DNA of 32,000 nucleotides from Ktedonobacterales bacterium (GTDB taxonomy: Bacteria > Chloroflexota > Ktedonobacteria > Ktedonobacterales > JADMIN01): the NCBI GenBank assembly GCA_030167145.1, contig CP126532.1:30001-62000 (forward strand), given 5' to 3'. Made by a program: the position numbers and the translations under genes. Below are positions 1,273-23,332 of the stretch, piece by piece. The number at the start of each line of letters is the position of its first letter. Position 1 is the stretch's first letter. The notes under the pieces were generated by a model, which did no database searches, had not been told where the DNA came from, and saw only the letters and a list, made by a program, of their open reading frames with translations.

Positions 1273-1296
1273 GGTATTACTTCCTCTCGTTCTCGC

Positions 1297-1752
1297 TTAG
1301 ACTCCGGGTTGCAGCATAACCCAGGTTACTTCCAGCTCGGTTGTGACGGCCCCCTCACTGTTCACCAGTTGTACCGGCAGCGTGAAACGTGCGCGTGCAG
1401 TCTGGTGCAGTTCTATGCGGATGTGATCTTGTTCCTCGGCAGGAAGCCTCGCGATGGCTCGCAGATCGCCGCTGCTGGGCTTACGATAGTGAATCGCCGC
1501 ATCTGCTAGCACAGGCACATATCCCTGCGCCTGATACTCGGCGAATGCAGCAAGAATGAGTGCTCCCGCCGCCACTTCGCCCAGCCCGAACTGCGCTACC
1601 GCGTGGACCGTACCAACATGATTGAGCCGCTCAGGCGCTGCTGGAAGCAGCGCCTCTGCCTGCTCTGATCCCACCGATGTAACCCGCGCCCCGACCATAC
1701 GGCTGAACGGAACTGCTTCGTCTAGCAGGCGGTTGATGCTCTCGACATCCAT
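1297..1752 (-). CDS. hotdog-fold thioesterase (PaaI/DUF4442-like)
   Basis: 151 aa. Size and pattern fit the PaaI/YiiD_C-type hotdog fold (NHVGTVHAVAQFGLGEVAAG, followed by a beta-rich C-terminus). It is tightly packed between the acyl-CoA dehydrogenase (15-nt gap) and the thiolase (24-nt gap). Confidence 0.6.
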   Translation of the reverse strand: MDVESINRLLDEAVPFSRMVGARVTSVGSEQAEALLPAAPERLNHVGTVHAVAQFGLGEVAAGALILAAFAEYQAQGYVPVLADAAIHYRKPSSGDLRAIARLPAEEQDHIRIELHQTARARFTLPVQLVNSEGAVTTELEVTWVMLQPGV

Positions 1753-1767
1753 TCCAAGGGCCTTTCG

Positions 1768-3546: not shown

Positions 3547-3597
3547 GTTGTCTACCTCCTATGGGTATGAAACCGTACCAAACGTTGAGTGAGGATA

Positions 3598-5400
3598 TTA
3601 TGCTTCGTCGTTCGTAGCGCCTGGATTCTGCATCCTTTGCCGCGCAAGGTACTCATCGCGAAGCGTGCGGCGCAATACCTTGCCGACGAGTGTTTTTGGA
3701 AGTGAATCGCGGAACTCGAATTGCTTCGGTACCTTGTATGGAGCGAGCCGCTCGGCGAGGAATGCTCGTAGCTCATCTGCTGCCAGCTTCTCACCCGGCT
3801 TCACCACGACGAATGCGCGTACCGTCTCGCCTCGGTACTCATCAGGTACACCAACTGCGGCCGCTTCGAGCACTTTCGGATGCTGGTACAGTACCTCATC
3901 AACTTCGCGCGGGAAGATCTTGAGACCTCCTGCGATGATGAGATCCTTGGCGCGATCCTCGATGGTGAAATATCCATCGTCGCTCATATAGCCGAGGTCA
4001 CCTGTTCGTAGCCAGCCATCGCGCAATACATTCACCGACTCGTCAGGCCGTTGCCAATAGCCTCGCATCACTTGCGGGCCGCGGATGACGATCTCGCCGT
4101 GTTCACCTGGCGCTAGGAACTCCCAGGTTTCTGGATTGATGATCGCCGCATCTGTGCTGGACATTGGCAGGCCAATCGTACCGATACGCCGCTCGCCATA
4201 GACTGGGTTACAGTGCGTGACGGGTGAGGCTTCAGTCAGCCCATAGCCTTCAACTACTCGCGCGCCAGATACTTGTTCGAAGCGCTTCTGCACCTCCAAT
4301 GGCAGCGGCGCCGACCCACTAATGCAGACTTTAATAGAGCTGAGATCACGGCGTCGTTTCTCAGCCTCACGCGCCAGTGCAAGGTACATGGTCGGCACAC
4401 CAGGAAATAAATCTGGCTGATGCTTCTCAATTGCCTTCAGCGTATCCTTTACTGTAAAGCGCGGCAGCAGCAGCATAGTCGAGCCATTGAGCATGGTCAT
4501 GTTCATGCCAACCGTCAGACCATATACATGGAAGAATGGCGCGACACAGAGTGTCGTGTGACGCGAACCGTCTGGTTGCTCATTCCATGCCCATGCCTGC
4601 ATCGCATTCGCTAGCAGGTTACTATGTGTCAGCATTGCCCCTTTAGCGAGGCCAGTTGTGCCGCCTGTATACTGAAGCACCGCAAGATCGTTCGCTGAAG
4701 TACGCTCAGGCATAGGGAGTAACTCAAATCCTTGACGACTGTGGGCGTGTCCAAGCAACTCCTTAAACCGGTGTAACGTTGAATCGGTGCGCTGAGTTTT
4801 GTTCACCACTCTTGGCTTGCCACGCGATTCGGTAGCTTCTTTCAGTCGGAAGAGTGTGCCGAGTGCTGGGGGCAGATAATCGGCGGGGCTAGTCAGAATA
4901 ACCTGCTTTACGCCGGTATTTGCGCGGATCGCGGCTAATGTGGAGTAGAACTGGTCAAGGATAACCACCATGCGCACACCTGCGTCACGAAGTTGGTGCT
5001 CCATTTCCGGCTGCGTATAGAGCGGATTGGTTGGCACTACAACACCACCGGCCTTCAAAATGCCGTAGAACGCGATGGGAAACTGGGGCACATTTGGTAA
5101 GCAGAGTGAGACACGGTCGCCTCGCTGTAGACCAAGGCGCAAAAGTGCATGCGCAAACCGATCCACAAGTGATGCAAGTTGCAAATAGGTGATGCGCCTT
5201 CCAAAGTATTCGATAGCGACGTTAGCCCCATATCGGCGGCACGCCTCATCGAGTAGCCAGGTAAGATCGTGATTGGGAACGTCTATACTAGCAGGCACAC
5301 CTGAAGAATAATGCGCGAGCCAGGGCCTTTCCATCGAAGTGAAGGTGGACGGACGCGTCATTGGATCGGGCATCGGCGAGTTCTGCGAGAGGTCGGCCAT
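3598..5400 (-). CDS. long-chain-fatty-acid--CoA ligase (AMP-binding superfamily)
   Basis: 600 aa. It carries the AMP-binding signature LQYTGGTTGLAKGA, plus GYGLTE, TGDLGY..DGYFTIEDRAKD and a C-terminal PKTLVGKVLRR. GAGGAG lies 9 nt upstream of the ATG on the minus strand. Confidence 0.9.
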   Translation of the reverse strand: MADLSQNSPMPDPMTRPSTFTSMERPWLAHYSSGVPASIDVPNHDLTWLLDEACRRYGANVAIEYFGRRITYLQLASLVDRFAHALLRLGLQRGDRVSLCLPNVPQFPIAFYGILKAGGVVVPTNPLYTQPEMEHQLRDAGVRMVVILDQFYSTLAAIRANTGVKQVILTSPADYLPPALGTLFRLKEATESRGKPRVVNKTQRTDSTLHRFKELLGHAHSRQGFELLPMPERTSANDLAVLQYTGGTTGLAKGAMLTHSNLLANAMQAWAWNEQPDGSRHTTLCVAPFFHVYGLTVGMNMTMLNGSTMLLLPRFTVKDTLKAIEKHQPDLFPGVPTMYLALAREAEKRRRDLSSIKVCISGSAPLPLEVQKRFEQVSGARVVEGYGLTEASPVTHCNPVYGERRIGTIGLPMSSTDAAIINPETWEFLAPGEHGEIVIRGPQVMRGYWQRPDESVNVLRDGWLRTGDLGYMSDDGYFTIEDRAKDLIIAGGLKIFPREVDEVLYQHPKVLEAAAVGVPDEYRGETVRAFVVVKPGEKLAADELRAFLAERLAPYKVPKQFEFRDSLPKTLVGKVLRRTLRDEYLARQRMQNPGATNDEA

Positions 5401-5434
5401 GTGAGCACACTCCTCATCGAGCGCGACGGATCAT

Positions 5435-5447
5435 TGCCACATTGGCA
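5435..5447. promoter_or_regulatory. palindrome TGCCA-N3-TGGCA, candidate operator just downstream of the putative fad -10
   Basis: The sequence tgccacattggca has arms that are exact reverse complements. It lies at about +1 to +15 relative to the TATAAT at 5455-5450 on the minus strand. Confidence 0.3.
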
Positions 5448-5449
5448 GC

Positions 5450-5455
5450 ATTATA
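5450..5455 (-). promoter_or_regulatory. candidate -10 box (perfect TATAAT on the minus strand) for the beta-oxidation operon
   Basis: Plus-strand attata at 5450-5455 reads TATAAT on the minus strand, about 50 nt upstream of the ligase ATG (5400). I could not find a convincing -35. Confidence 0.35.
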
Positions 5456-5471
5456 CGTGGTACTTTTAGCC

Positions 5472-5538
5472 TCTGCTGTATAGCCAGCTAACAAATTCCT
5501 GCGATATACTTGATGCCAGCTAACAGAAGCATACAGCA
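5472..5538. repeat. composite repeat in the divergent promoter region: two 11-bp direct repeats bracketed by an 8-bp inverted repeat
   Basis: GCCAGCTAACA occurs at 5483-5493 and 5515-5525 (32-bp period). The outer arms TGCTGTAT (5472-5479) and ATACAGCA (5531-5538) are reverse complements. A TATACT -10-like hexamer (5505-5510) lies between the direct repeats. Confidence 0.5.
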
Positions 5539-5570
5539 TCCTGAAGTCAGAGGGAAGGGTAGCAACGACA

Positions 5571-6416
5571 GTGCCAACACGCTCAGAAAGGATCGCGGGA
5601 TCTGAACCACCCCAAGATGCAGGCTCGAATTTTGGCCAGCTTGTAGCATTCTTCCGCCAACGTTGCGGCCTCTCACAAGGCCAATTGGCGCGGGCGGCGA
5701 GGCTCTCGCGAACCTATGTCTATCATCTCGAGACTGCTCAGCGCCTTGCGCCATCGGCGCGTGTCGCTCGAACCCTGGCTCGTGCGCTGGAACTACATGG
5801 CAACGACCGAAGACAATTTGCTGATGCCTTCGCACGACTCACCGGCCAGCAAGTTGAGGAAGAGCCAGAAGCGCCCGACCTTCTCGATCAGCGTGAATTG
5901 GCGGCGCTCTTGGTGGATAGCACGGCCTTTCCCGCTCATAGCCTGGATCGCCTCTGGAACATTGTTTCCTGGAACACGCCTTCGATGCAACTATTCGAAG
6001 TAACGACGGATGCGCTCAACATCCATCGTAGCAATCTCCTTGTTTTTGTGTTTGATCTTGCATATCGCACCCGATTTCGGCCCTGGGAAGGGTTGGCACG
6101 CCGTCTCCTGGCCGATTTTAAGCATGCTACTCGTAGTCTGGCTTATCTACCAGAATATCGAGAATTATGGCGAACTCTGCGCGCTATGCCCGATTTTCGG
6201 CGTATCGCTGAATCGGCTGAGACTGGCGTGATGATGGCGCCCAGCTTTGTATTTCAAATGCGCCATTCACATCTCGGATCTTTGACATTGCGGACGAGCG
6301 CCACCGTCTTCAGTGGTGTCTCTGACTACTCCATTGTCACCTATATGCCAGGTGACCAGCGAACCCTTGCGATTTTTGCCGAGCACGGCTGGCAAAAGTT
6401 GGTTCGCAACATGTAA
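5571..6416 (+). CDS. MmyB-like transcriptional regulator (N-terminal XRE helix-turn-helix plus C-terminal MmyB-like ligand-binding domain)
   Basis: 281 aa with a GTG start. HTH: FGQLVAFFRQRCGLSQGQLARAARLSRTYVYHLETAQRLAPSARVARTLARAL. The C-terminal domain shows the family pattern FPAHSLDRLWNIVSWNTPSMQLF ... FRRIAES ... HSHLGSLTL. Confidence 0.8.
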   Translation: MPTRSERIAGSEPPQDAGSNFGQLVAFFRQRCGLSQGQLARAARLSRTYVYHLETAQRLAPSARVARTLARALELHGNDRRQFADAFARLTGQQVEEEPEAPDLLDQRELAALLVDSTAFPAHSLDRLWNIVSWNTPSMQLFEVTTDALNIHRSNLLVFVFDLAYRTRFRPWEGLARRLLADFKHATRSLAYLPEYRELWRTLRAMPDFRRIAESAETGVMMAPSFVFQMRHSHLGSLTLRTSATVFSGVSDYSIVTYMPGDQRTLAIFAEHGWQKLVRNM

Positions 6417-6435
6417 AAGCCCGCGACTTGAAGCG

Positions 6436-6444
6436 TGATACAAT
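6436..6444 (+). promoter_or_regulatory. candidate extended -10 promoter (TGaTACAAT) for the esterase/ABC gene string
   Basis: The sequence tgatacaat starts 20 nt after the regulator stop and lies 80 nt upstream of the esterase-1 ATG. TACAAT -10-like hexamers also lie upstream of hemQ (tggtacaat, TGn-extended, 15695-15703) and of the response regulator (27413-27418, no TG extension). Confidence 0.35.
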
Positions 6445-6523
6445 GCGGCAGCGGATTCCGGTGTATCGCCAGGACGTACTTCCGATGATGTAGAAATGGT
6501 TCTTCGGCTATCTTCGCTGTCCG

Positions 6524-7279
6524 ATGGATATCATGCCGACTCGGTTCACTCGCCACCGCGTGTTCCAACGCGGACACTACCTTCAAATCTGTTATGTCTA
6601 TATGGTGGCCATTGCCGCCATTCTCGCCGCTTGCACTTCTGCCAACACAACCCATTCCAGTTCCAGCGTCGGCCCAGCGCATCCATCTTGGCGCCTTACA
6701 TACGTTGCGATTGGCGCATCAGATAGCTTCGGTATTGGTACACAGGACCCGGACCGACAAAGCTGGCCAACCATTGTAGCAGACGAACTCGGACCCAATA
6801 CGCATCTGATCAACCTCGGAGTTCCTGAAGAGACCGTAGCGCGCGCGGTACAGAGTGAATTGCCAATTGCGTTGGATTCCGATCCTGACATGATCACCGT
6901 CTGGCTCGGCGTCAACGACTTCGTGGATGGTGTCGCGCTTGATGCATATGCGGGTCAATTGCAGTCGCTGCTAAGCGCATTGCACGAGGGAACACATGCG
7001 CGCATCGTCGTCGGCAATTTGCCGAACCTAACATTGCTTCCGCGTTTCTCTCAGAGTGATCCGACGAGTCTACGCAGCCAGGTCCAACGTTGGAATGCGG
7101 TCATTGCCTCTGTTTGCGCAGCGACGGGTGTAACCCTGGTTGACATCTACTCTGGTTGGGAAGAACTGTCTACCCACCCGGAATACATTAGTTCAGATGG
7201 ATTTCACCCGTCGGCGATTGGTGCGGAACGGCTCGCCGACATCTTTGCTGTCGCCCTCGATCAATCAGCAAGAACCTAG
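6524..7279 (+). CDS. SGNH/GDSL-family esterase/lipase, predicted lipoprotein (copy 1)
   Basis: 251 aa. SGNH blocks: I AIGASDSFGIG, II INLGVPEET, III WLGVNDF, V SSDGFHPS. The signal peptide has a lipobox ILAAC (Cys codon 6632-6634). Alternative starts exist at 6533 and 6602. Confidence 0.85.
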   Translation: MDIMPTRFTRHRVFQRGHYLQICYVYMVAIAAILAACTSANTTHSSSSVGPAHPSWRLTYVAIGASDSFGIGTQDPDRQSWPTIVADELGPNTHLINLGVPEETVARAVQSELPIALDSDPDMITVWLGVNDFVDGVALDAYAGQLQSLLSALHEGTHARIVVGNLPNLTLLPRFSQSDPTSLRSQVQRWNAVIASVCAATGVTLVDIYSGWEELSTHPEYISSDGFHPSAIGAERLADIFAVALDQSART

Positions 7280-7290
7280 AGGCGGGAGCT

Positions 7291-10200
7291 GTGGACAATA
7301 TCACCGGCATCTCTTCTTCAAATCTGCTCCGACCTCTGTTAATAGGGACACTCATCGTGTTGGTGCTGCTAGCATGGCTGGCGCAACGCTCGCCACATCT
7401 AGTGCGTATCGGACTACGGAGTGTAGGGAGGCGCCGTGCGCGCACGGTTCTGATTATCCTTGGCCTAATGCTCTCGACCACATTTGTTGCTTCAGCGTTT
7501 GCTGTGGACAACACCATCACAACAGCGGTCAAGTCTATTGCTGTCTTTAGCCTGGGCCGCATTGACGAAGATGTCGTCGGTAGTGGAAGTCTTCGCCTCT
7601 ATCCCGCGCATTATGGCCAGTTGGCTGCGAGCGCACTCGACGGCAATCCGCATGTCGCAGGTGTCGCACCATCGCTTGTGATCTCGAATCTGTTGGTAGC
7701 CGACGAAACGGCGCGTCAGGTACGTGGTGGGGTGACAGCCGTTGCGATGGATGGCTCCCAGGCAGGCACACTTGGAGCGTTGGAAGATGTTCACGGTCGT
7801 CTAGCATCTGTAAACGCGCTTGGATCAGAGGATGCTTATCTGAACGCGACCACTGGCGCACTGCTCAATGCACAGCCTGGTGATGTACTCTATCTCTACT
7901 CAACTAAATGGCCGGGGCATCGTTACCAATTCACATTACGGGCAATCGTCACTGGCGGCCCGCTCGGTGACAGTCCAGCAATTGTCCTCCCTTTGACGAC
8001 GCTGCAAAATCTGCTCGGCGCGCCGAATCATATTAACCATATCTACATTGCCAACACGGGTGATGGATTGACTGGCGTGAGCTACAGCGACGACATTGCA
8101 AATCAAGTGAACGCGAGCCTTCCCGCATATCTCTATGTACGAGAAGTCAAGGCAGATGGCGTCAAATTCGCACTGCGCGCCCAGGATATCTTCGGCCGGA
8201 TCTTAACACTCTACACGCTTTTCGCTCTCGCGCTTGGCCTTATGCTTATCTTCCTCATTTTTGTATTACTCGCGGCTGAGCGGCGATCTGAACTTGGCAT
8301 GGTGCGGGCACTGGGCATGCGGCGTAACCATATTGTAGGGATGTTACTCTTCGAAGGCGCTGCGTATGACACCGCTGCTGCTGCAATCGGTATGCTCTCT
8401 GGCTTGGGGTTGGGGGTACTCATTGTAATGATCGTCAGCCCAACGCTGACACAGATCGGCTTCCCGCTCAAAATAGCCATAGATCCAGAAAGTATGCTCG
8501 TCTCTTTCTGCCTGGGCGCGCTTTTCACCATGGTTACCATTTGGCTTGCTGCGTGGTCTGTGAGTCGCATGACCGTCGCAGCAGCGCTACGTGATCTGGA
8601 AGACCCTCCGAGACCAGACTTAGGGCTGGCGCACCTTCTCCGTGCGCTGATGCTTGCGCTCCGAGACATCTCGCGGTGGCCATTTGTCTCCCTCGACGCA
8701 CTAGGGCAGCTCGTTTGGGGAATCACGGTACGAGGTATCGTACCGCTAACACTTGGCTGGGTACTACTGCGTCTAGCAGAGGAACGGCACGACATCTTGC
8801 TGCTATCGCTCGGCGTGTCATGTGTGGTAGTTGGAGGCGTGCTGTTGCTTCGCTGGCTAGGTCTCTTTCTCGTATTGATCTGGATGCGTGTACCGACGGC
8901 CGCCTCCGCCACCCGCGTAATGTACCGCGCACATGTTGTGGCGGATAGGTTCGCCGCTCTCCTCATTGGTGGTGGGATTGCGTTGTATTGGTCACTTCCG
9001 TTTGACGTTTTCGGGCAATTCGGCGCCGAGCGCTTCACAGGTGGTATTGCGACCTTCTTTGTTGCAGGTGTGATGATGGTGTTCGGCGCGGTCTGGGCAA
9101 TTGCACCCAATCTTGATCTCCTGCTCATTCCGGTCCGCTGGCTCTTCGCTGTGCTGCGGCACAGCCATGTTACACGAATAGCGCTGGTCTATCCCTCGCA
9201 ACAGCGCTTCAGAACGGGTATTGGCCTTGCCCTATTCTCGTTAGTTTGCTTCACGATGGTTGTGATGGCATGTATTGCCGCTTCGACCACACATACATAT
9301 GATACCGTTCCGGCACAAGCTTCGGGCTACGATGTTGCTGGACAGCCGCTCTTTACACCAGTCGGTGATAGTAGCCACGTGCGCGCCGTTCTGGGGCGAT
9401 CCAATGCACTGAATAATTTGGCGACCATAAGCAGCGCGACGCCCTTGCCCCTCGGAATTTTGCAGCCCGGAGCACCAAATGCGCGTTGGTCATTATATCC
9501 AGTCTCGCAAGTTGATGGCGGTTTCCTTGATGGAGTGGGCTTGCCTCTCGTCGCGCGTGCGCTGGGATACACGAGTGATGCGGATGTCTGGCAGGCATTG
9601 CGCACGCACCCCGGCGATGTTGTCATAGACACAGGCGCGCTCAGCGGTATAGATGCTGCTAGGCTAAGTTTGACATTGCCCCCGTCGCTCAACGCGAGCA
9701 CATTTCTTGGCTCGCCCATTGCGTCTGGCCTGCCGGGGCTTTCGAGCCTTGAAGCAATCTCCAACCAAACGGCCAATGCTTCTGACATTCAACAAGCGTT
9801 GCCCGAAGCAGGCGCGGCCATCTCTGATCCTGATTTTCTGCGCGAAGTAACACTGCGTTTGCGAAATGTAGCGCTGAGTTCTGGTGTTATTGCGCCAACT
9901 CCGCTATGGGTCAGCGATTTGAGAGGAGGGAAGGCAATCAAGTTGACACTCATTGGCATTGTAGAAAATGTGCATGGCGAGCGGCAAGGAATGTTCGGCT
10001 CCGCTGCCACTTTTGCGCCAGTCGAGCAAGGGCTATCCGCTTTCGGCAACGAATATTTCTTTTTCAAAACCAAACCTGGCGTAGATGTCCACGCTGAGGC
10101 TCTTACACTCGGATCAGCTCTACTCGACCATGGCTTTGAGACGACCGTGCTACAGGACGTTCTGCTGGATGTGAACGGTCCGCAAGTCTTCATCAGCCGA

Positions 10201-10596
10201 GTGCTCGTGGGATTGGTGGGTCTGACACTTCTTGTGGGTACTGCGGCGCTCGCCGTTACCGGATCACGTGCAGTGGTAGAGCGTCGGCAGCAGATCGGGA
10301 TGATGCGCGCGTTAGGTTTTCGGCGAGCGCATGTGCAGGCGATTTTTCTTATCGAGTCGTTGCTGGTGGGTATGGCCGGAACAATTCTCGGATTGATATT
10401 GGGTCTGGCACTGTGTCGTAATCTCTTTGCCGTGAACTTCTTCGCACAATATAGATCGGGGTTGACGTTGATTGTGCCCAGCTTGGAACTTGCGGCAATT
10501 TGCGCCGCCGCCATATTTGCGTCCAGTGTGGCCGCGCTGCTGCCTGCTTGGCAAGCCGGGCGTATCGCTCCCGCCGACGCTCTGCGTTACGAGTGA
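7291..10596 (+). CDS. ABC transporter permease with two FtsX/MacB-type halves (copy 1)
   Basis: 1101 aa; GTG start 11 nt after the esterase stop, preceded by GGGAG. The first half has a RIGLRSVGRRRARTVLIILGLMLS-type TM1, a ~230-aa extracytoplasmic domain, and an FtsX bundle (LLAAERRSELGMVRALGMRR...). A hydrophobic linker block follows. The second half has TM1' (YPSQQRFRTGIGLALFSL), a ~300-aa extracytoplasmic domain, and a second FtsX bundle (VVERRQQIGMMRALGFRR ... LLPAWQAGRIAPADALRYE). Confidence 0.9.
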   Translation: MDNITGISSSNLLRPLLIGTLIVLVLLAWLAQRSPHLVRIGLRSVGRRRARTVLIILGLMLSTTFVASAFAVDNTITTAVKSIAVFSLGRIDEDVVGSGSLRLYPAHYGQLAASALDGNPHVAGVAPSLVISNLLVADETARQVRGGVTAVAMDGSQAGTLGALEDVHGRLASVNALGSEDAYLNATTGALLNAQPGDVLYLYSTKWPGHRYQFTLRAIVTGGPLGDSPAIVLPLTTLQNLLGAPNHINHIYIANTGDGLTGVSYSDDIANQVNASLPAYLYVREVKADGVKFALRAQDIFGRILTLYTLFALALGLMLIFLIFVLLAAERRSELGMVRALGMRRNHIVGMLLFEGAAYDTAAAAIGMLSGLGLGVLIVMIVSPTLTQIGFPLKIAIDPESMLVSFCLGALFTMVTIWLAAWSVSRMTVAAALRDLEDPPRPDLGLAHLLRALMLALRDISRWPFVSLDALGQLVWGITVRGIVPLTLGWVLLRLAEERHDILLLSLGVSCVVVGGVLLLRWLGLFLVLIWMRVPTAASATRVMYRAHVVADRFAALLIGGGIALYWSLPFDVFGQFGAERFTGGIATFFVAGVMMVFGAVWAIAPNLDLLLIPVRWLFAVLRHSHVTRIALVYPSQQRFRTGIGLALFSLVCFTMVVMACIAASTTHTYDTVPAQASGYDVAGQPLFTPVGDSSHVRAVLGRSNALNNLATISSATPLPLGILQPGAPNARWSLYPVSQVDGGFLDGVGLPLVARALGYTSDADVWQALRTHPGDVVIDTGALSGIDAARLSLTLPPSLNASTFLGSPIASGLPGLSSLEAISNQTANASDIQQALPEAGAAISDPDFLREVTLRLRNVALSSGVIAPTPLWVSDLRGGKAIKLTLIGIVENVHGERQGMFGSAATFAPVEQGLSAFGNEYFFFKTKPGVDVHAEALTLGSALLDHGFETTVLQDVLLDVNGPQVFISRVLVGLVGLTLLVGTAALAVTGSRAVVERRQQIGMMRALGFRRAHVQAIFLIESLLVGMAGTILGLILGLALCRNLFAVNFFAQYRSGLTLIVPSLELAAICAAAIFASSVAALLPAWQAGRIAPADALRYE

Positions 10597-10756
10597 CTGT
10601 TCCACTGTCTATAGTGAGCGCTCTGCATGTTACGAGCGTCAATTGGCATGTCACATGCTGATCCATTTGTATTCGGGAACGCAGGCAAAGACACAAGTGG
10701 AGAGTTCCGTGCGGCAGCGTATCCTACATCCAACACAAGTTCCCACCTTCGCCAAT

Positions 10757-11479
10757 ATGCTCCGTATTGCCGTGCTTGGGATAGTATTTTGTGGGATACT
10801 TAGTTCATGTTCGGGGACATCAAACTCAACACACACATCTCGGCCAACGGCGACGCCAACCGCTCTGCTCCCAACCCCTACACCTCTCGCCGACATTACC
10901 TACGCTGCTATCGGTGCGTCAGACTCATTTGGCACTGGCACCACCGACCCCGCTCATGATAGCTGGCCGGCAGTCCTTGCGCGTGGGTTGGGAAAGTCGG
11001 TGCATCTGCTCGATCTGGGCATTCCTGGTGCGACCGCTGAGTTGGCTCAGCGTGATGAGGTACCCATCGCGGTGGCGGCACAGCCGAAGATCATTACCGT
11101 GTTGCTCGGGGTGAATGATATAGATGACGGTATCTCGCTCAGTGCATTTCGCACCCAATTGGCATCTATTTTGGCCGTTCTGGAAAGCGAAACACCCGCT
11201 CGTGTGTTTGTTGCCAACCTCCCTGACTTGACGCTGTTTCCACATTTTGCTTCGCGCGACTCCTTAGCGCTCTTACAGGAGATCTTGCAATGGAACTCAA
11301 CAATAGCTCAAGTGGCTCGTGAGCAAGGCGCGATACTGGTAGACCTGTACTCAGATCGAGCCGAGCTTGCCCAACACCCCGAGTACATCGCCAGCGACGG
11401 ACTGCACCCCTCAACCTTGGGCGCTATGAGAGTTGCGGCGGTCTTCGCCGACGTCATCAATGCCAGTCAGACTACCTAG
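10757..11479 (+). CDS. SGNH/GDSL-family esterase/lipase, predicted lipoprotein (copy 2)
   Basis: I take the start at ATG 10757 (MLRIAVLGIVFCGILSSC, lipobox LSSC, Cys codon 10808-10810). The ORF-track start at 10472 would overlap permease 1 by 125 nt. The SGNH blocks are AIGASDSFGTG, LDLGIPGAT, LLGVNDI and ASDGLHPS. It aligns colinearly with copy 1, and roughly half the aligned positions are identical by eye. Confidence 0.85.
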   Translation: MLRIAVLGIVFCGILSSCSGTSNSTHTSRPTATPTALLPTPTPLADITYAAIGASDSFGTGTTDPAHDSWPAVLARGLGKSVHLLDLGIPGATAELAQRDEVPIAVAAQPKIITVLLGVNDIDDGISLSAFRTQLASILAVLESETPARVFVANLPDLTLFPHFASRDSLALLQEILQWNSTIAQVAREQGAILVDLYSDRAELAQHPEYIASDGLHPSTLGAMRVAAVFADVINASQTT

Positions 11480-11492
11480 AAATGGTCGCGCA

Positions 11493-14400
11493 ATGTTCAC
11501 TTCTGTAGGAAGCACTTCGAATAATTTGACTGTCCTGTTGCTAGCAATGGCCTTAATTGCCGCTCTTGCTGGAATGACCATTGCTGGAGTGCGCTCTCGC
11601 TATGCGGTACGAATCGCATTTCGTCAGGTGCGTCGTCGTCCCGGCCGCAATGCCCTAATTGTGTTTGGTTTGATGCTTGCCACAACGTTCATTGCCGGAG
11701 CGCTCATCCTGAATGACACCATTGTCCTTGCGGTTCAGCAAGTAGCAGTCTATAGCTTGGGGCGAGTAGACGAGGAAGTTGTAAGCGGGTCGGGGATTCT
11801 TGGCTTCTACCCCACTGCCACAACAGACGTTGTGCGCACTGCTGCCGCTGGAGATGCGCAGGTAGTGGACGTGACACCAGCCCTTGCCGTGCCAGATCTC
11901 TTGATTGTAGATGAAGCGTCACGGCAGGTACGTGGCAACGTCTTGGGCATCGGGATTGCGCCTGATGGCGGGCCACTGACGAATTTCACTTCGGTGGATA
12001 GCCGGCAGATGGCACCTGTAGACGACCTGGCTCCAGATGAAGTCTATTTGAACTCCAACGCCGCCCGACTCTTGAGTGCTCATCCTGGTGATTCACTGCT
12101 CATCTACTCGTCACTTACTCCAGGTAGCCAATATCATGTGCGAGTCCGCGCCATCGTGAGTGGTGGCGCACTCGCACGCCTGCCATCACTTGTGACCTCG
12201 CTTTCAACCCTTCAGGCATTCTTTGACGCTGATGGCCGCATCAATCGTATCTACATCGCGAACGCTGGAGATGGGCTTTCTGGCGTCGGCTTTAGTGACG
12301 CCATAGCCACACGCATCAATAAAGTTCTTCCCAGTGGACTATCTGTGCGTAAGGTAAAACAAGAAGGTGTGAATTATGCACTTCAAGCACAAGAGGTGTT
12401 CGGACGCATCCTGGTGCTCTACACTTTGTTTGCGCTTGCAATTAGCTTGCTTTTGATTTTCATCATTTTTGCACTCCTGGCGGCGGAACGGCGCGTTGAG
12501 ATCGGAATCGAGCGGGCGTTAGGTATGCATCGCTTCCAGGTTGTCGAAGTTCTGCTTTTTGAAGGTGCTTTTTACGCTACGGCGGCCAGTATCCCTGGCG
12601 TGCTTGCCGGAATTGGACTGGGCACAGTCATAGTTCGTATTGTCACGCCAACAATTGCGCAGTTCGGGCTGCCACTCACCGTGAGCATCCGCCCCGAAAG
12701 CATTCTCCTTGCGTTCTCACTCGGCCTTTTGTTCACCCTTGTGGCCACGGTGGCAGTCGTCTCGGTTGTCAGCGGTATGAACATTTCCGCAGCGATGCGG
12801 GGATTACCAGACCCTCCGATGGCGCCAAAGTCGCTTCGAAGTCTTGTACACGCCGTCTTCGCCAAACAATCAGGTCACTCAGCGTTTACCTCAATCATAT
12901 ACCTAGTCTGGGGATTAGCGAGACGCGGTATCATACCCTTGCTGCTGGGATGGGTATTGGTTCGGTACGCCGTGGAGGCCCGCAACGTGGTTGCACTCGC
13001 GCTCGGTATTCCCGGAGCACTTGCGGGGATGGTACTCATTATCCGTTGGCTGACGCTCGTGCTGATGTTCCGCTTGATGCGCCGTTCCGCCACACATACA
13101 CTTGATATGATTCAAAGTATTGCCAATCGCCTCAGTGCATTACTCATTGGTAGCACTTTGGTGCTCTACTGGTGGTTGCCATTCGCCACACTTCGTCAGC
13201 TTGGGTTGCCTCGCGTACCCGGCGGTATTGAGTTGCTTTTCATTGCTGGTGTGATGATGATCGCAGGTGCGGTATTGGGAATCGCGCCGAATCTCGATAT
13301 TCTGCTTGCTCCATTGCGATGGATGTCGAAGCGAACTGGCCAGCTTAGGCATGTGTCCTATGTTGCTTTCGTGTACCCTTCGCATCAGCGTGTACGCAGC
13401 GGACTGACCATTTCCATGTTTTCGCTCGTGACATTTACGATGGTGGTGATGGCCTGTGTCGCGGCGTCTACAGTGCAGCGATATGGCAACCTTGGAGTTC
13501 AGGCTGGCGGATATAATATCATTGGGCAACCGCTGTTTAGGCCGATAGGTTCTGCTGATCAGGTCGCGCAGTTGCTCGACCGTAGCGCACCTGCGACCAG
13601 CAATGATGTTAGCGCCATAAGTAGCGCTACACCATTACCACTGATAATGTTTCAGCCGGACGCAACTACGGCACGTTGGGCGGTCTACCCCGCTTCGGAA
13701 ATACAGGGGGCATTCTTGTATGGGCAGGGACTACCATTAGTAGCACGCGCCCCACAGTTTGCTTCTGATGCTGCTGTCTGGCAATCTGTGCGAACGCAGC
13801 CAGGAAATGTCGTGATAGATGTTGGTGCGCTGAGCGATGACGATGCAGGCATTCTTGGAATTAGCGCAGCGCCTGGCGTTGGGATAAAGGACTTCGTAGC
13901 GCCCCCCATCGCGTCGAGTCTACTTGGACTTGCGAGCCTGGAATCACTGCTCGGGCAATCATCGGTGCTAAACCTTCAGCGCGGTGTGCCACCAGACATT
14001 CGTCATCTCATTGAAGACCAGAGCACACTCGATCTCTACACCCTCCATCTTCAGAATATTGCGCTCGGTCAGGGGAGTATTGTCCCCACAACGATGTGGA
14101 TTGCTGATCCACGCGGTGGCGTACCAGCGAAAGTAACGATCATCGGTATCGTTGACAATGCTCATGGGCAAAGCTATGGTCTTCTCGGATCCCCGCAGAC
14201 CTTTGCTTCTGTTGAGCAAGGACAACCGCTGATCACCAGCGCCTACTACTTCTTCAAGTTGTACGCGGGTGCTAATGTCCATGCGGATGCTATTTCTATC
14301 GGCTCAGCACTGCTGAACTATGGATTTCAGACTACTGTCATCGAAGATGCCCTCGAAGACTTGAATGGACCGCAGGTCTTCGCCAGCCGAGTATTGATCG

Positions 14401-14786
14401 GACTCGTCGGCTTGACGCTGCTGATAGGCATGGTTGCGTTGGCCATCATTGGCTTGCGGGCGGTAGTAGAGCGACGGCAGCAGATCGGGATGCTACGCGC
14501 ATTGGGCTTTCGCAGGACTGCGGTTGGCACAATCTTTGTCCTGGAAGCCATACTGATCGCCATTGTGGGCGCAAGTCTTGGTCTGATACTTGGCCTTGCC
14601 CTGGCACGCAACGTCTTTGCCGTGAACTTCTTTGTTCGCATTCAATCAGGATTGACTTTAGTTATACCCTGGGCAGCACTAGCTGCCATTATAGGCACTG
14701 CCGTCGTCGTGGCCGTCGGCGCTGCGTTAGCTCCTGCACGCAAGGCGAGTCATGTCGCACCTGCCGAGGCGCTACGCTATGAATGA
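11493..14786 (+). CDS. ABC transporter permease with two FtsX/MacB-type halves (copy 2)
   Basis: I take the start at ATG 11493, 13 nt after the esterase-2 stop; the track start at 11433 overlaps esterase 2. It is colinear with copy 1 over its whole length, with the same TM1 motif, both extracytoplasmic domains, the linker block, both FtsX bundles and the terminal PAEALRYE. Confidence 0.9.
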   Translation: MFTSVGSTSNNLTVLLLAMALIAALAGMTIAGVRSRYAVRIAFRQVRRRPGRNALIVFGLMLATTFIAGALILNDTIVLAVQQVAVYSLGRVDEEVVSGSGILGFYPTATTDVVRTAAAGDAQVVDVTPALAVPDLLIVDEASRQVRGNVLGIGIAPDGGPLTNFTSVDSRQMAPVDDLAPDEVYLNSNAARLLSAHPGDSLLIYSSLTPGSQYHVRVRAIVSGGALARLPSLVTSLSTLQAFFDADGRINRIYIANAGDGLSGVGFSDAIATRINKVLPSGLSVRKVKQEGVNYALQAQEVFGRILVLYTLFALAISLLLIFIIFALLAAERRVEIGIERALGMHRFQVVEVLLFEGAFYATAASIPGVLAGIGLGTVIVRIVTPTIAQFGLPLTVSIRPESILLAFSLGLLFTLVATVAVVSVVSGMNISAAMRGLPDPPMAPKSLRSLVHAVFAKQSGHSAFTSIIYLVWGLARRGIIPLLLGWVLVRYAVEARNVVALALGIPGALAGMVLIIRWLTLVLMFRLMRRSATHTLDMIQSIANRLSALLIGSTLVLYWWLPFATLRQLGLPRVPGGIELLFIAGVMMIAGAVLGIAPNLDILLAPLRWMSKRTGQLRHVSYVAFVYPSHQRVRSGLTISMFSLVTFTMVVMACVAASTVQRYGNLGVQAGGYNIIGQPLFRPIGSADQVAQLLDRSAPATSNDVSAISSATPLPLIMFQPDATTARWAVYPASEIQGAFLYGQGLPLVARAPQFASDAAVWQSVRTQPGNVVIDVGALSDDDAGILGISAAPGVGIKDFVAPPIASSLLGLASLESLLGQSSVLNLQRGVPPDIRHLIEDQSTLDLYTLHLQNIALGQGSIVPTTMWIADPRGGVPAKVTIIGIVDNAHGQSYGLLGSPQTFASVEQGQPLITSAYYFFKLYAGANVHADAISIGSALLNYGFQTTVIEDALEDLNGPQVFASRVLIGLVGLTLLIGMVALAIIGLRAVVERRQQIGMLRALGFRRTAVGTIFVLEAILIAIVGASLGLILGLALARNVFAVNFFVRIQSGLTLVIPWAALAAIIGTAVVVAVGAALAPARKASHVAPAEALRYE

Positions 14787-14835
14787 AGCCTACACTCGCT
14801 CGTAAACATTCGTTTGCCGACGGTGATAGGAAACT

Positions 14836-15636
14836 ATGGAGGGAAGTAGTGCGATGAGAATTACTGACGCACGAGATCAAGATGCGGGGCAAGCTAACCA
14901 AGAAAACATTCAGGCGGAGAGTCCAATCGTCAAGGCCCTTCATATAGCCAAGGTCTACAAATCACATCACATTGAAATACCGGCCCTCACAGATATCAGC
15001 CTAGAAATTCGACACGGTGAAATGGTTTCGGTAATGGGGCCAAGTGGGTGCGGAAAGACCACATTATTGAATTGCCTGGCTGGCCTCGACACGGTGGATC
15101 ACGGCACTGTAGAGATTGCAGGTGTCGACATTGCAAAAATGAGCGATGCCAAACGCACAGATTTTCGTGCCCAGACCATGGGATTCATTTTCCAAAGCTT
15201 CAATCTGATTCCAGTTCTGACCGCCGTGGAAAATGTCGAGTTGCCTCTGTTGGTGCTTGGTAAACGCGCTGGAGTGGCGCGAAAACGTGCGCGAGAGTTG
15301 TTGGTTGCGGTTGGTTTGCGTGATCGCGAGAAGCACCGCCCATCAGAGTTGTCTGGCGGGCAACGCCAGCGCGTGGCAATTGCGCGAGCGCTTATCAATA
15401 ATCCAGCGATTGTGTGGGGTGACGAACCGACTGGCAATCTTGACAGCGAAGCAGCAGATGAAGTCATGGATCTGCTCACAACGCTCAATCGTACTCTCGG
15501 CCAAACTCTGGTCATTGTCACTCACGCCACAGACATCGCTGCACGCACTAATCGCGTCATTCGTATGCGTGACGGAGCAATTGTCTCTTCGCTGACGAGC
15601 ACGGATCCGACATACGACACCTCTCACCAATCATGA
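14836..15636 (+). CDS. ABC transporter ATP-binding protein, MacB/LolD/FtsE-like
   Basis: 266 aa. Walker [10 protein letters not shown], signature [15 protein letters not shown], Walker [14 protein letters not shown]-loop VIVTHA. About 30 N-terminal residues precede the usual start of the fold. An alternative ATG lies at 14854. Confidence 0.93.
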
Positions 15637-15694
15637 TCGTTGCGGTTTCCGTCCGTTATTTGTGCCCATCGAGTAGTGTGCCCGTCATGCGCCA

Positions 15695-15703
15695 TGGTAC
15701 AAT
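15695..15703 (+). promoter_or_regulatory. candidate extended -10 promoter (TGgTACAAT) upstream of the HemQ-family gene
   Basis: The sequence tggtacaat lies about 105 nt upstream of ATG 15808, which is preceded by AGGAGG. Direct repeats TGTGCCC(A/G)TC at 15661-15670 and 15677-15686 lie just upstream. Confidence 0.35.
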
Positions 15704-15807
15704 CTCGTCAGATATGCTCCATACGTCATGGCGAGAACCTTGCTGCGTGGCGCATGGCCCTATCTTTCAGGACGTTTGTTTGCTAGCGGCCCGTCAGGAG
15801 GCGTAAC

Positions 15808-16596
15808 ATGACGGCTGTTCCATCCCAGCCTAATATCTTTGTAGCATACTGGCTCTTTAGCCTTGACCCTGCATTCCACCGTCTCTCAGCTAGCGTGCAG
15901 AATCAGGGTAAAGAAGAGTTCCTTTCCAAATTAGATACGCGCCCGCAATCAATCACACTTCGAGGCACCTATTCTCTTGCTGGACTGCGATCTGACGCAG
16001 ATCTCATGCTCTGGATATACGCGCCAAATCTGGACGATATCCAAAATCTGGCAATATCACTTCGCCAGACCGGCTTGGGCGCTTACCTACGGCCCGTTGA
16101 GACGTATGTAGGAGTCGTAGCACCCGCACGTTATGATCCAGGTCACCAGCCCGCGTTCATGTCTGGCGCTGCACCCAAGAGTTACATAAGTGTATATCCG
16201 TTTGTGAAGACATCCGATTGGTATTTGTTGCCATTTGAGAAGCGCCGTGAGCTAATGGCAGAACACGGGCAGGTGGGTCGCCGATACGCGGTACCTCGCG
16301 ATCAACTGACAGGCGGAGAGGATAGCGTGACACATACATATGGCAATAACGCGACCACTCTCGCAGCTAGCAGCAAAGAGGTCGCGGAAGGCGGTGGTGT
16401 GCTCTCTAATACTGTGGACGCATTTGGCCTAGGCGACTACGAATTTATCCTGGCCAATGAGTCGGATGACCCTAGCGAGTTGTGTCGAATGATGGAGTCT
16501 CTACGTAAGGTCGAAGTACGCCGTTACACACAGTTAGACACCCCAATCTTCTTGGCACGACTTCGCACGCCAGCCGAAGCAATAGATGCACTCTAG
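15808..16596 (+). CDS. hemQ: chlorite-dismutase-family protein, most likely coproheme decarboxylase (HemQ/ChdC)
   Basis: 262 aa. The family pattern is present: YSLAGLRSDADLMLWIYAP, ISVYPFVKTSDWYLLPFEKRRELMAEHG, and FGLGDYEFILANESDDPSEL..LR. A strong AGGAGG sits 7 nt upstream of the ATG. Confidence 0.75.
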   Translation: MTAVPSQPNIFVAYWLFSLDPAFHRLSASVQNQGKEEFLSKLDTRPQSITLRGTYSLAGLRSDADLMLWIYAPNLDDIQNLAISLRQTGLGAYLRPVETYVGVVAPARYDPGHQPAFMSGAAPKSYISVYPFVKTSDWYLLPFEKRRELMAEHGQVGRRYAVPRDQLTGGEDSVTHTYGNNATTLAASSKEVAEGGGVLSNTVDAFGLGDYEFILANESDDPSELCRMMESLRKVEVRRYTQLDTPIFLARLRTPAEAIDAL

Positions 16597-16622
16597 CGTT
16601 CAAGGATATGCCCCCTGATTTG

Positions 16623-16652
16623 GGCGCAGTTCGCAGTTCATCGCACTGCGCC
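16623..16652. terminator. weak candidate hairpin between convergent genes
   Basis: GGCGCAGT (16623-16630) pairs with ACTGCGCC (16645-16652) around a 14-nt loop. There is no U-tract, and it overlaps the kinase stop codon. Confidence 0.2.
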
Positions 16653-17381
16653 ACTATCGTTCGGAAATAGCGGCAGGTCGAACCAGAAAATGCTGCCGCT
16701 ACCACGTCGTGCACGCACCCCGATCTGGCCGTGATGTAATCTAACAATTTCACGAGCGACGTAAAGTCCATTGCCAGCGCCTACTGCGTCATTTGCATTA
16801 CTTCCCGTCGTGTACGCCTCAAAGATTCGATTTCGCTCATTCGCGATCACCCCAATTCCGCGGTCGCTTATTGTGGTGTGGAGTATGCCGCCAGATGTTG
16901 CAAGCGACACCTTTACGTCCCCATCCTGACCATATTTGATCGCGTTTGCGAGTAAGGTAGAAAGCAGTTCTCCTAATCGCTTGCGATCCCACATGCCGAT
17001 AATCTCGTCCTCTTCACATTCTAGATGAATTATCTGGCTTCGCAACCCATCGGCATATATGCCAACGATACGACGAGCCACAGCCACAACGTCGCAGCGA
17101 GTTGGCTGAACAAGAAAGCGACCCTGGGCAAGATGTGTCACCGAGAGATACACATCAATCATATTGTTCATGCGCTCGACTTGATAGGCGATCTTATTAA
17201 TGTCCGAGATATCTACGGCATATGCCGTGTCTTTCCGAAACCGCCACTGCATAAGTTGCACCTGACCACTCAGCGCGCTGACTGGCGCACGCAATTCATG
17301 GCTTGCGATATCGAGAAAGTCGAATTGCATGTCGTCGCCACCCCGACGTGTAGGTTCGGGCCGCGTGGTATTTCGATCCAT
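16638..17381 (-). CDS. histidine kinase, core only (HisKA + HATPase_c, no sensor or TM domain)
   Basis: 247 aa. H-box DIASHELRAPVSAL, N-box LLANAIKYG, G1 DRGIGV, G2 GAGNGLYVARE. Only about 20 residues precede the H-box helix. Confidence 0.85.
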   Translation of the reverse strand: MDRNTTRPEPTRRGGDDMQFDFLDIASHELRAPVSALSGQVQLMQWRFRKDTAYAVDISDINKIAYQVERMNNMIDVYLSVTHLAQGRFLVQPTRCDVVAVARRIVGIYADGLRSQIIHLECEEDEIIGMWDRKRLGELLSTLLANAIKYGQDGDVKVSLATSGGILHTTISDRGIGVIANERNRIFEAYTTGSNANDAVGAGNGLYVAREIVRLHHGQIGVRARRGSGSIFWFDLPLFPNDSGAVR

Positions 17382-22864: not shown

Positions 22865-23332
22865 GTGTGCTATGAGAAGAGCTTTTGCCCACAATTGGGC
22901 GTACAGGAGGACAGTCTCGCCGTGATTCAGGCATCCGACACACCCACCTCGCAGCCAGCGGCCACCCGGTGGACATTCTATCGCCGGTTCGGTCTTTTAC
23001 TACGCACGTGCCTCGACGAAGAAGGCGCTACACTCTCGCTTAACGACGTAGCTGCCCGCACACACAACCGCGTGTCGCCTGATCAACTGCAACAGTTGCT
23101 CGCGCAAGATGCCCGCATACCGGTAGACCCGGTCATCTACGTGCTGCTGGCTCAGGCATTTGATGTTGACCCTGACTTTTTTGTGAGTGATGTCGCTGTC
23201 GCGGAGTACATTGACTCTATCCACAAGCGGTTCGTCGGCCTGAACATGGGCAACCATGACGTAACGCTCCAGGCTCAGGCGGTTGCTCTGCGCGAATCTC
23301 AGCGTCTGGCCCCAGGCATCACGGTGCGCTAA
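22865..23332 (+). CDS. small XRE-like helix-turn-helix protein (hypothetical)
   Basis: FGLLLRTCLDEEGATLSLNDVAARTHNRVSPDQLQQLLAQDARIPVDPVIYVLLAQAFDVDPDFF follows the XRE HTH spacing pattern. The start is uncertain: GTG 22865, or GTG 22922, which has AGGAGG 11 nt upstream. Confidence 0.5.
   Translation: MCYEKSFCPQLGVQEDSLAVIQASDTPTSQPAATRWTFYRRFGLLLRTCLDEEGATLSLNDVAARTHNRVSPDQLQQLLAQDARIPVDPVIYVLLAQAFDVDPDFFVSDVAVAEYIDSIHKRFVGLNMGNHDVTLQAQAVALRESQRLAPGITVR

Follow-up and report, generated by a model that had tools for sequence, protein, structure and literature searches.

A duplicated pair of esterase and double-FtsX permease genes with one ATPase gene in a Ktedonobacterales bacterium resembles YbbAP-TesA by architecture and gene linkage

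Why would a bacterium keep two copies of an exported esterase gene, each set directly before the gene of a very large ATP-binding cassette (ABC) transporter permease, with a single ATPase gene for both? This question is raised by the window analysed here, a 32-kb stretch of contig CP126532.1 from a soil Chloroflexota bacterium represented by a Ktedonobacterales metagenome-assembled genome (MAG). In it, two colinear modules, each encoding an SGNH esterase predicted to be a lipoprotein and a double-FtsX permease of ~1,100 residues, are followed by one LolD/YbbA-like ATPase. A transporter of this general kind has been described in Escherichia coli, where the type VII ABC transporter-lipid hydrolase YbbAP-TesA was purified, assayed and resolved by cryo-electron microscopy (9GE6, 9GE7 and 9GE8; McAndrew et al., PLoS Biol 2025, PMC12646458). 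YbbAP-TesA is a 2:1:1 complex in which TesA sits on both periplasmic domains of YbbP, a protein with ten transmembrane helices, with its active site towards the transporter; it is proposed to extract lysophospholipids or other hydrophobic compounds for hydrolysis (PMC12646458). The Ktedonobacteria system looks like a distant, Gram-positive-style counterpart of it. The genes at issue are the following, all on the plus strand.

6524-7279, plus strand: est1, SGNH/GDSL-type lipoprotein esterase (predicted), 251 residues; Pfam Lipase_GDSL_2 2e-24, lipobox L-A-A-C, predicted nucleophile S66 in G-A-S-D
7291-10596, plus strand: perm1, fused double MacB/FtsX-type permease, 1,101 residues, GTG start; two FtsX domains, hydropathy, AlphaFold2 (AF2) model, Foldseek
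10597-10756, plus strand: inter-module spacer, 160 nt; no significant structure and no recognised RNA
10757-11479, plus strand: est2, paralogous SGNH lipoprotein esterase (predicted), 240 residues; Pfam Lipase_GDSL_2 2e-23, lipobox L-S-S-C, Ser/Thr/Pro-rich tether
11493-14786, plus strand: perm2, paralogous double-FtsX permease, 1,097 residues from ATG 11493; two FtsX domains, 51% identical to perm1
14836-15636, plus strand: single MacB/LolD/YbbA-type ABC ATPase; Pfam ABC_tran 8e-34

The layout agrees with that read by the first-pass annotation, which had been made from the letters alone. The open reading frame (ORF) map and the translations give both modules and the single ATPase gene the coordinates that it had assigned, and Pfam finds Lipase_GDSL_2 in both esterases, two FtsX domains in each permease and ABC_tran in the ATPase. 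The gaps of 11-13 nt that it had reported between esterase stop and permease start measure 11 nt in module 1, where the spacer holds a GGGAG Shine-Dalgarno-like run, and 13 nt in module 2. Its description of the host as Chloroflexi-like was also right, perm1 being 100% identical to the Ktedonobacterales MAG protein OJF49_000033. For perm2, the mechanical ORF begins at TTG 11433, and the consensus N-terminus of the family alignment favours ATG 11493. The inter-module spacer has a fold z-score of 0.75, one weak terminator-like hairpin (10642-10662) and no Rfam match. Rfam and tRNA scans of the whole window returned nothing, and a promoter and terminator scan of 5300-16700 gave counts not above those of shuffled sequence.

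The permeases belong to the type VII (MacB/FtsX) ABC superfamily, having an FtsX transmembrane domain, a Porter/Sabre-type extracytoplasmic domain (ECD) and, in the adjoining gene, a MacB/LolD-type nucleotide-binding domain (NBD). FtsX matches reach 6e-30 in Pfam, and MacB_PCD matches ECD1 of perm1 marginally, at 25.6 bits against a cutoff of 27. Hydropathy and AF2 secondary structure place an N-terminal helix at residues 9-33 of perm1, followed by a first FtsX unit (one transmembrane helix, ECD1 at ~73-309 and three further helices), a transmembrane linker of four helices (~464-611) and a second FtsX unit (one helix, ECD2 of about 305 residues at ~663-970 and three helices). This amounts to 4 + 4 + 4 transmembrane helices plus the N-terminal helix, 12-13 in all, and agrees with the earlier description of ~1,100-residue permeases with two FtsX halves and two large extracytoplasmic domains. 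The two halves align with each other only over the last ~100 residues of the ECD and transmembrane helices 2-4, and a profile comparison of ECD1 with ECD2 detected no similarity. Coupling-helix motifs of the form ERRxExG...RAxG are invariant in both halves of both paralogues.

To place the fold, perm1 was modelled with AF2 from an alignment of 128 sequences, which gave a predicted local distance difference test (pLDDT) score of 84 and a predicted template modelling (pTM) score of 0.79. An earlier run from 16 sequences had reached a pLDDT of 65, with ECD2 below 50, and its template modelling scores (TM-scores) are superseded by those of the 128-sequence model. In a Foldseek search of the PDB, the top and only full-length match was E. 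coli YbbP (9ge7_A, E 6e-19, TM-score 0.57 normalised to YbbP; 9ge6_A, E 2e-17, TM-score 0.56), over ~1,100 alignment columns. MacB, LolE/LolC and, partially, BceB ranked after it, and the periplasmic domains of LolE and MacB were matched with TM-scores of 0.73 (5udf) and 0.57 (3ftj). The modelled permease shares its structural plan with YbbP, in that a single chain holds two FtsX units and two ECDs in a similar overall fold.

This likeness does not extend to the curated sequence families. The YbbP equivalog model NF041854 has a cutoff of 999 bits, which E. coli YbbP itself passes with 1458; perm1 and perm2 give no match to it at E <= 0.01. The highest-scoring NCBIfam model, lolCE (LolCDE, TIGR02212), reaches 73 bits against a cutoff of 362, the ADOP model TIGR03434 reaches 65 against 622, and FtsX family models reach 17-18 bits against cutoffs of 225-250 (18 against 225 for NF038347). 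Direct orthology with YbbP was rejected at the level of sequence, on NF041854 together with BLASTP and hhalign.

The esterases carry a complete set of SGNH catalytic residues in an unusual setting. Residue conservation was counted over 66 homologues, and over a cleaned alignment of 64 sequences for block I. Both window proteins have a lipobox, LAAC in est1 and LSSC in est2, followed in each by a Ser/Thr/Pro-rich tether. The lipobox Cys column is kept in 62 of the 66 homologues, 57 of which fit the expression [LVI][ASTVI][GAS]C, and the tether spans 23-37 residues. Est1 and est2 are thus predicted lipoproteins, and the export signals on which the first-pass annotation had made its proposal depend are, like those for lipidation, conserved. 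Block I Ser is found in 64/64 sequences, block II Gly in 62/66, block III Asn in 63/66, and the Asp and His of the block V Asp-x-x-His in 64/66 and 65/66; with Lipase_GDSL_2 above its cutoff, these residues assign the proteins to the SGNH superfamily. Around the block I Ser the motif is invariant as G-A-S-D-[T/A/S]-[F/Y]-G-x-G. The canonical G-D-S-(L), in which Asp precedes the nucleophile, was not found in the 64-sequence alignment: Ala takes that place and Asp follows the Ser instead.

BLAST and hhalign pair a different residue of est1, S68, with TesA S36. This candidate was rejected because the S68 column varies between Ala, Thr and Ser across the family whereas S66 is invariant, and S66 is therefore the predicted nucleophile. 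TesA depends on the Asp before its Ser, the D35A substitution being inactivating (PMC12646458). The esterases look catalytically competent but atypical, since the catalytic residues are conserved and yet Ala replaces the canonical Asp; the conserved Asp directly after the Ser may take over the role of the missing one. Direct sequence orthology with TesA was likewise rejected, est1 and est2 scoring 26.2 and 24.5 bits against the 270-bit cutoff of the TesA equivalog NF007819 and est1 being 21% identical to TesA.

Is the pairing a peculiarity of this locus or a conserved association? A scan with a permease profile, restricted to one genome per species, yielded 80 loci, of which 73 are from Ktedonobacteria and seven, at ~30% permease identity, from elsewhere; loci are cited below by their L numbers. 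The esterase was sought by tblastn and with an esterase hidden Markov model over all six frames. Of the 73 Ktedonobacteria loci, 68 have an esterase gene directly before that of the permease and in the same orientation. Four of the remaining five are cut by a contig end (L013, L045, L052 and L072), which leaves 68 of 69 evaluable loci with the pair, the fifth being L020. The check that the first-pass annotation had asked for, whether the adjacency holds across genomes, thus came out in favour of co-conservation. In two cultured strains, Ktedonosporobacter rubrisoli (L029) and Dictyobacter aurantiacus (L041), the esterase stop and the permease start overlap by 4 nt. The neighbours there are unrelated housekeeping genes and no ATPase gene adjoins, so the conserved core is the esterase-permease pair itself. 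Extra copies of the esterase family that do not adjoin a permease occur at 18492-19319 of L029 and 5544-6303 of L060; the former shares 34% of its residues with est1 and has a Pfam GDSL match.

Beyond Ktedonobacteria the permease belongs to a large uncharacterised family, for which an exhaustive profile search at E <= 1e-30 gave 1,115 cluster representatives (clusters at 50% identity). Among the distant relatives sampled, the G-A-S-D esterase family is linked to the permease in L082, L083 and L096. In L082 (966-7309) the G-A-S-D esterase gene is followed by an ABC ATPase gene, a small ORF and genes for a short-chain dehydrogenase, a methyltransferase and the permease, in that order; L083 has the order esterase, ATPase and permease, its esterase carrying a signal anchor and no lipobox Cys. 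Several of the sampled distant metagenomic representatives have no esterase. One further relative, L089 (1429-7258, in the NCBI MAG GCA_040902555.1), has an AMP-binding, acyl-CoA ligase-like gene directly followed by an ATPase and a permease of the long double-FtsX family, with no esterase; its AMP-binding neighbour is another loose link to acyl metabolism. Universal recruitment of the esterase by this permease family is ruled out by these metagenomic representatives and by the seven loci at ~30% identity.

The two modules of the window derive from an old duplication. Est1 and est2 are 45% identical, and perm1 and perm2 are 51% identical and colinear over 1,076 aligned residues, close to the half of residues estimated by eye in the first-pass annotation. 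In neighbour-joining trees, est1 and perm1 are both sister to the pair of L018 (bootstrap 100 for the permease, 71 for the esterase), and est2 and perm2 are both sister to the pair of L023 (97 and 59); L018 and L023 are two contigs of one MAG, SMAG_U2529, the closest related MAG. The type-2 permease clade has a bootstrap of 100 and the matching esterase clade 61, the remaining subclades mirror each other between the two trees, and pairwise identities of esterases and permeases correlate with r = 0.70. From these matching sister pairs it follows that the unit was duplicated once in the Ktedonobacterales clade and that the esterases kept their own permeases. On the trees, this is an old en-bloc duplication with the pair inherited as a unit, as had been supposed. 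Tandem or near-tandem units are also present in L001, L017 and L065, and two MAGs hold both types at separate loci (L018/L023 and L021/L067).

The ATPase is nearest to the NCBIfam models of LolD (248 bits), YbbA (222 bits) and MacB, the LolD and YbbA scores being under cutoff, and is 44% identical to E. coli YbbA. That the two modules are accompanied by a single ATPase gene, as first read, agrees with a survey of ORFs of at least 150 residues in the 32-kb window, which found no other ABC ATPase. In a tree that has no bootstrap support, the window ATPase groups with the ATPase beside the type-2 unit of L023, and perm1 has no ATPase gene of its own, either in the window or in L018. Many Ktedonobacteraceae esterase-permease units likewise have no adjoining ATPase, and trans-encoded or shared ATPases therefore appear normal for this permease family. 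From these orphan units, and from the invariant coupling-helix motifs in both paralogues, we infer that perm1 and perm2 share the single ATPase. A second in-frame ATG of the ATPase gene, at 14854, is preceded by GGAGGGAAG, in the junction sequence a stronger Shine-Dalgarno than that at ATG 14836; with the better ribosome-binding site there, the true start may be six codons later.

What might such a pair act on? The clues come from the DNA upstream of est1, where the following features lie.

5571-6416, plus strand: MmyB-like helix-turn-helix regulator, directly 5' of est1; Pfam MLTR_LBD 4e-19 and HTH_31
5481-5530, no strand: candidate operator, GCCAGCTAAC twice as a direct repeat in the promoter region between the divergent fadD and mmyB genes; motif conservation
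3598-5400, minus strand: acyl-CoA synthetase (fadD); Pfam
1768-3546, minus strand: acyl-CoA dehydrogenase; Pfam
1297-1752, minus strand: DUF4442 thioesterase-like protein; Pfam
82-1272, minus strand: thiolase; Pfam

An MmyB-like regulator gene thus lies ahead of the est1 operon on the same strand, and an operon of beta-oxidation type (82-5400, minus strand) runs divergently. The order fadD (minus), mmyB (plus), esterase, permease and ATPase recurs in 15 related loci, and a sixteenth, L020, shows the same order without the esterase. This recurring surrounding of fadD and an MmyB-like regulator had escaped the first-pass annotation. Of 16 fadD/mmyB intergenic regions examined, 11 hold a TAGCCAGCTAAC-like motif, namely that of the window and those of 10 out of 15 related loci; the spacer between mmyB and est1 lacks it. 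On this conservation the GCCAGCTAAC/TAGCCAGCTAAC-like motif is a candidate operator of the MmyB-like regulator. The regulator matches MltR (3pxp) of Chloroflexus, the only solved MmyB-like regulator, which was crystallised with myristic acid in its ligand pocket (PMC3406030). The synteny with fadD and beta-oxidation genes and a regulator whose solved relative bound a fatty acid point to lipid or acyl-ester substrates, and to fatty-acid salvage, in the subclade of the window. Two further acyl-lipid genes lie elsewhere in the window, which is rich in them: an AidB-like acyl-CoA dehydrogenase (17441-19282, minus strand) and an acyl-ACP thioesterase (25897-26715, minus strand).

Taken together, these data lead us to propose, with moderate confidence, that each lipoprotein esterase is the working partner of its cognate permease and probably sits on it, that the ATPase drives extraction of a hydrophobic ester for hydrolysis, and that the two pairs have diverged in specificity while sharing the ATPase. 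In such a system a flexible tether of 23-37 residues would keep the lipid-anchored SGNH esterase on the outside of the cytoplasmic membrane, where it would cooperate with the two ECDs of the fused MacB-type permease and most likely sit on them. Binding and hydrolysis of ATP by a dimer of the single LolD/YbbA-like ATPase would drive mechanotransmission in the permease, which would lift the substrate, a candidate lysolipid, acyl-lipid or xenobiotic ester, from the outer leaflet and present it to the esterase. The docking is suggested by analogy with YbbAP-TesA, and we infer extraction rather than gating. The two paralogous pairs probably differ in substrate or partner specificity, and perm1, having no ATPase gene of its own, would use the same ATPase as perm2. 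In the window subclade the operon would stand under or beside the MmyB-like regulator, and since it adjoins that regulator and is divergent from fadD and the beta-oxidation genes, released fatty acids plausibly enter catabolism.

Several observations weigh against this proposal. At the level of sequence, perm1 and YbbP show nothing past the generic FtsX domain (BLASTP E 0.7; hhalign probability 2.6%). Block I of the esterases is G-A-S-D, with no Asp preceding the Ser, unlike in TesA. The esterases are, moreover, only generically SGNH and match acetylxylan esterase and sialate O-acetylesterase-type proteins as well as or better than TesA, so that a carbohydrate O-acetyl substrate is possible. 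The fadD/MmyB context occurs in only about half of the close clade and is missing from Ktedonobacteraceae, whose units stand among housekeeping genes. L020, the sole evaluable Ktedonobacteria locus without the esterase, has genuinely lost it. The flanks of the seven loci at ~30% permease identity, which come from Dehalococcoidia, Thermomicrobiales and Rubrobacterales, hold no esterase; the two of these with scanned neighbours, L074 and L078, are TetR-ATPase-permease units. As to their arrangement, L020 (2206-7334) has the regulator, ~300 nt and then directly the type-2 permease and the ATPase, while L074 (8499-12967) and L078 (8054-15383) have a resistance-pump-like layout, followed in the Rubrobacterales MAG by a HisKA_3/LuxR two-component system.

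A bolder form of the proposal is tentative, and we would sooner doubt than accept it. It would make the system a separately assembled, or very deeply diverged, monoderm machine in which G-A-S-D esterases dock on cognate permeases with 12-13 transmembrane helices, share one ATPase and harvest acyl chains for beta-oxidation under a fatty-acid-sensing MmyB-type regulator. The acyl chains would come from membrane or environmental lipids, and the two paralogous pairs would differ in specificity. If this were true, hydrolase-coupled membrane extraction would be a general and recurrent use of type VII ABC transporters, and the window would offer a natural two-pair system for dissecting partner specificity.

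Of the other explanations, detoxification or efflux survives best, and we regard it as unlikely. A MacB/BceAB-like pump would here remove or sense a xenobiotic that acts on membranes (for example a lipopeptide, depsipeptide or macrolide-like ester), and the co-transcribed esterase would inactivate the compound without stable docking. The ~30%-identical permeases outside Ktedonobacteria invite this view, standing in TetR-ATPase-permease units, one of them beside the HisKA_3/LuxR system, which is a typical resistance-pump layout; MacB and BceB rank high in the fold search, and MmyB-family regulators have also been tied to antibiotic clusters (PMC3406030). However, the near-invariant tight coupling of esterase and permease genes, with its 4-nt overlaps, and their pairwise co-duplication fit a physical partnership better than loose co-regulation. 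Furthermore, the best fold match is YbbP, with two ECDs, and not BceB, with one, and neither a TetR regulator nor a two-component system flanks the Ktedonobacteria units.

More doubtful still is control of the kind exerted by FtsEX, in which the permease would allosterically switch an SGNH O-acetylesterase or deacylase on peptidoglycan or wall polysaccharide and so take part in growth or morphogenesis of these mycelial bacteria. FtsEX control of hydrolases is an established precedent (PMC12646458), the scores of the esterases are similar against acetylxylan esterase and against SGNH proteins of sialate O-acetylesterase type, and GT2 glycosyltransferases adjoin the unit in L029 and L041. Against this, the ECDs are of MacB/LolE type by fold (5udf and 3ftj, as above), FtsX family models score far under their cutoffs, no coiled-coil adaptor gene is present, and the lipid-catabolic surroundings of the unit in the window clade point the other way.

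It is very improbable that the esterase is atypical to the point of inactivity and that its main part in the transporter is that of an adaptor or of a subunit for substrate binding. The invariant G-A-S-D in place of G-D-S-x would be compatible with such a role, given that the Asp before the Ser is essential in TesA (PMC12646458). Ser, Gly, Asn, Asp and His are, however, all conserved at 94% or more, which would be unexpected for a dead enzyme, and the Asp after the Ser may substitute for the missing one.

Least credible, to the point of being nearly negligible, is a Lol-like handling in which the lipoprotein esterase is the cargo that the permease extracts or releases from the membrane: lolCE is the permease's top NCBIfam match (73 bits, far under cutoff), each half fits the LolE fold well and the esterase is a predicted lipoprotein, but no LolA- or LolB-like gene is present, Ktedonobacteria are regarded as monoderm and hence have no outer membrane to target, a dedicated transporter co-duplicated with each single cargo would be unprecedented, and the L083 esterase of the same family has a signal anchor in place of a lipobox Cys.

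The remainder of the window contains several genes that stand apart from the esterase-permease system. A phage-integrase-family protein of 539 residues (27891-29510, plus strand) coincides with a GC content of 0.58 at 28-29 kb, against ~0.54 around it, and may mark the edge of a mobile element. A short histidine kinase core of 247 residues (HisKA and HATPase_c; 16638-17381, minus strand) has no sensor or transmembrane region and no adjoining response regulator. Two ORFs, of 155 residues (22865-23332, plus strand) and 445 residues (30601-31938, minus strand), have no Pfam match, and one of 756 residues (23574-25844) has a HEAT-repeat match only.

Returning to the proposal of an esterase working on its cognate permease, its interest is threefold. 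Here a sequence-unrelated lineage, in a monoderm phylum, has an SGNH esterase nearly inseparable from a YbbP-like permease, which suggests that the design of a hydrolase on an extractor is general and not a proteobacterial oddity. The locus also adds substrate clues beyond those available in E. coli, namely a predicted lipid-anchored esterase, an MmyB-like regulator and fadD/beta-oxidation neighbours, all pointing to acyl-lipid substrates. Finally, two co-resident paralogous pairs with one ATPase amount to a built-in test of partner recognition and NBD sharing in type VII permeases.

How, then, does the system compare with those already known? The first-pass annotation had reached the idea of an esterase on its permease from FtsEX and from the position of tesA beside ybbA-ybbP in E. 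coli, and had called the arrangement uncharacterised. The idea is more than an extrapolation from FtsEX, as the mechanism is already established for YbbAP-TesA (PMC12646458); with the concept published there, what is new is the Chloroflexota variant. The first reading is partly supported: those of its parts that computation could check stand, and its central mechanism goes by analogy with E. coli. In the literature searched, we found no description of an SGNH/type VII pair outside YbbAP-TesA.

Other type VII systems share parts of the architecture. MacB and LolCDE have the FtsX transmembrane fold, a domain like the MacB_PCD-like ECD1, the coupling-helix motifs and a LolD-like ATPase; they are, however, dimerising protomers with four transmembrane helices, whereas here the halves are fused with an extra transmembrane linker, no MacA/TolC or LolA partner accompanies them, and the family models score far under their cutoffs. 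BceAB-type and ADOP (TIGR03434) transporters resemble the system in having single-chain, duplicated FtsX permeases, BceB being a partial fold match, and many Ktedonobacteraceae copies are orphans without an adjoining ATPase, as in ADOP. BceB differs in having one ECD and in pairing with the kinase BceS, the ADOP model reaches only 65 bits of its 622-bit cutoff, and no SGNH esterase is known as a partner of either family. FtsEX and its hydrolases (EnvC/amidases, PcsB, CwlO and RipC) likewise couple a type VII machine to an extracytoplasmic hydrolase, but with another type of ECD, coiled-coil adaptors and peptidoglycan hydrolases, and with no SGNH esterase.

Nearest among the known systems is YbbAP-TesA. 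Both systems have a single-chain permease of two MacB/FtsX-type halves with two large Porter/Sabre-type extracytoplasmic domains, YbbP being the best and only full-length structural match of perm1; both have a LolD/MacB-type ATPase, that of the window 44% identical to YbbA; and in both an SGNH hydrolase gene adjoins the transporter genes, here in 68/69 Ktedonobacteria loci and also in L082, L083 and L096. In one distant relative, L082, a short-chain dehydrogenase gene in the operon recalls tesA-ybbO. The differences are as clear. There is no detectable sequence orthology, the window proteins failing both NF041854 and NF007819. The permease has ~1,100 residues and ~12-13 transmembrane helices, owing to the four-helix linker and the N-terminal helix, against 804 residues and ten helices (4 + 2 + 4) in YbbP. 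The esterase is a predicted lipoprotein with a Ser/Thr/Pro tether and a G-A-S-D block I, whereas TesA is soluble in the periplasm. The genes run esterase then permease, co-directional and tightly coupled, in place of the divergent operons of E. coli, and the pair is duplicated with one ATPase in a monoderm Chloroflexota host. In architecture and gene linkage the Ktedonobacteria system is therefore YbbAP-TesA-like, but its proteins fall outside the YbbP and TesA families under their present definitions. What sets this variant apart is a larger, non-orthologous permease, an esterase of G-A-S-D type with a predicted lipid tether, two co-directional genes in tight coupling, the duplication of the pair beside one ATPase and the monoderm host.

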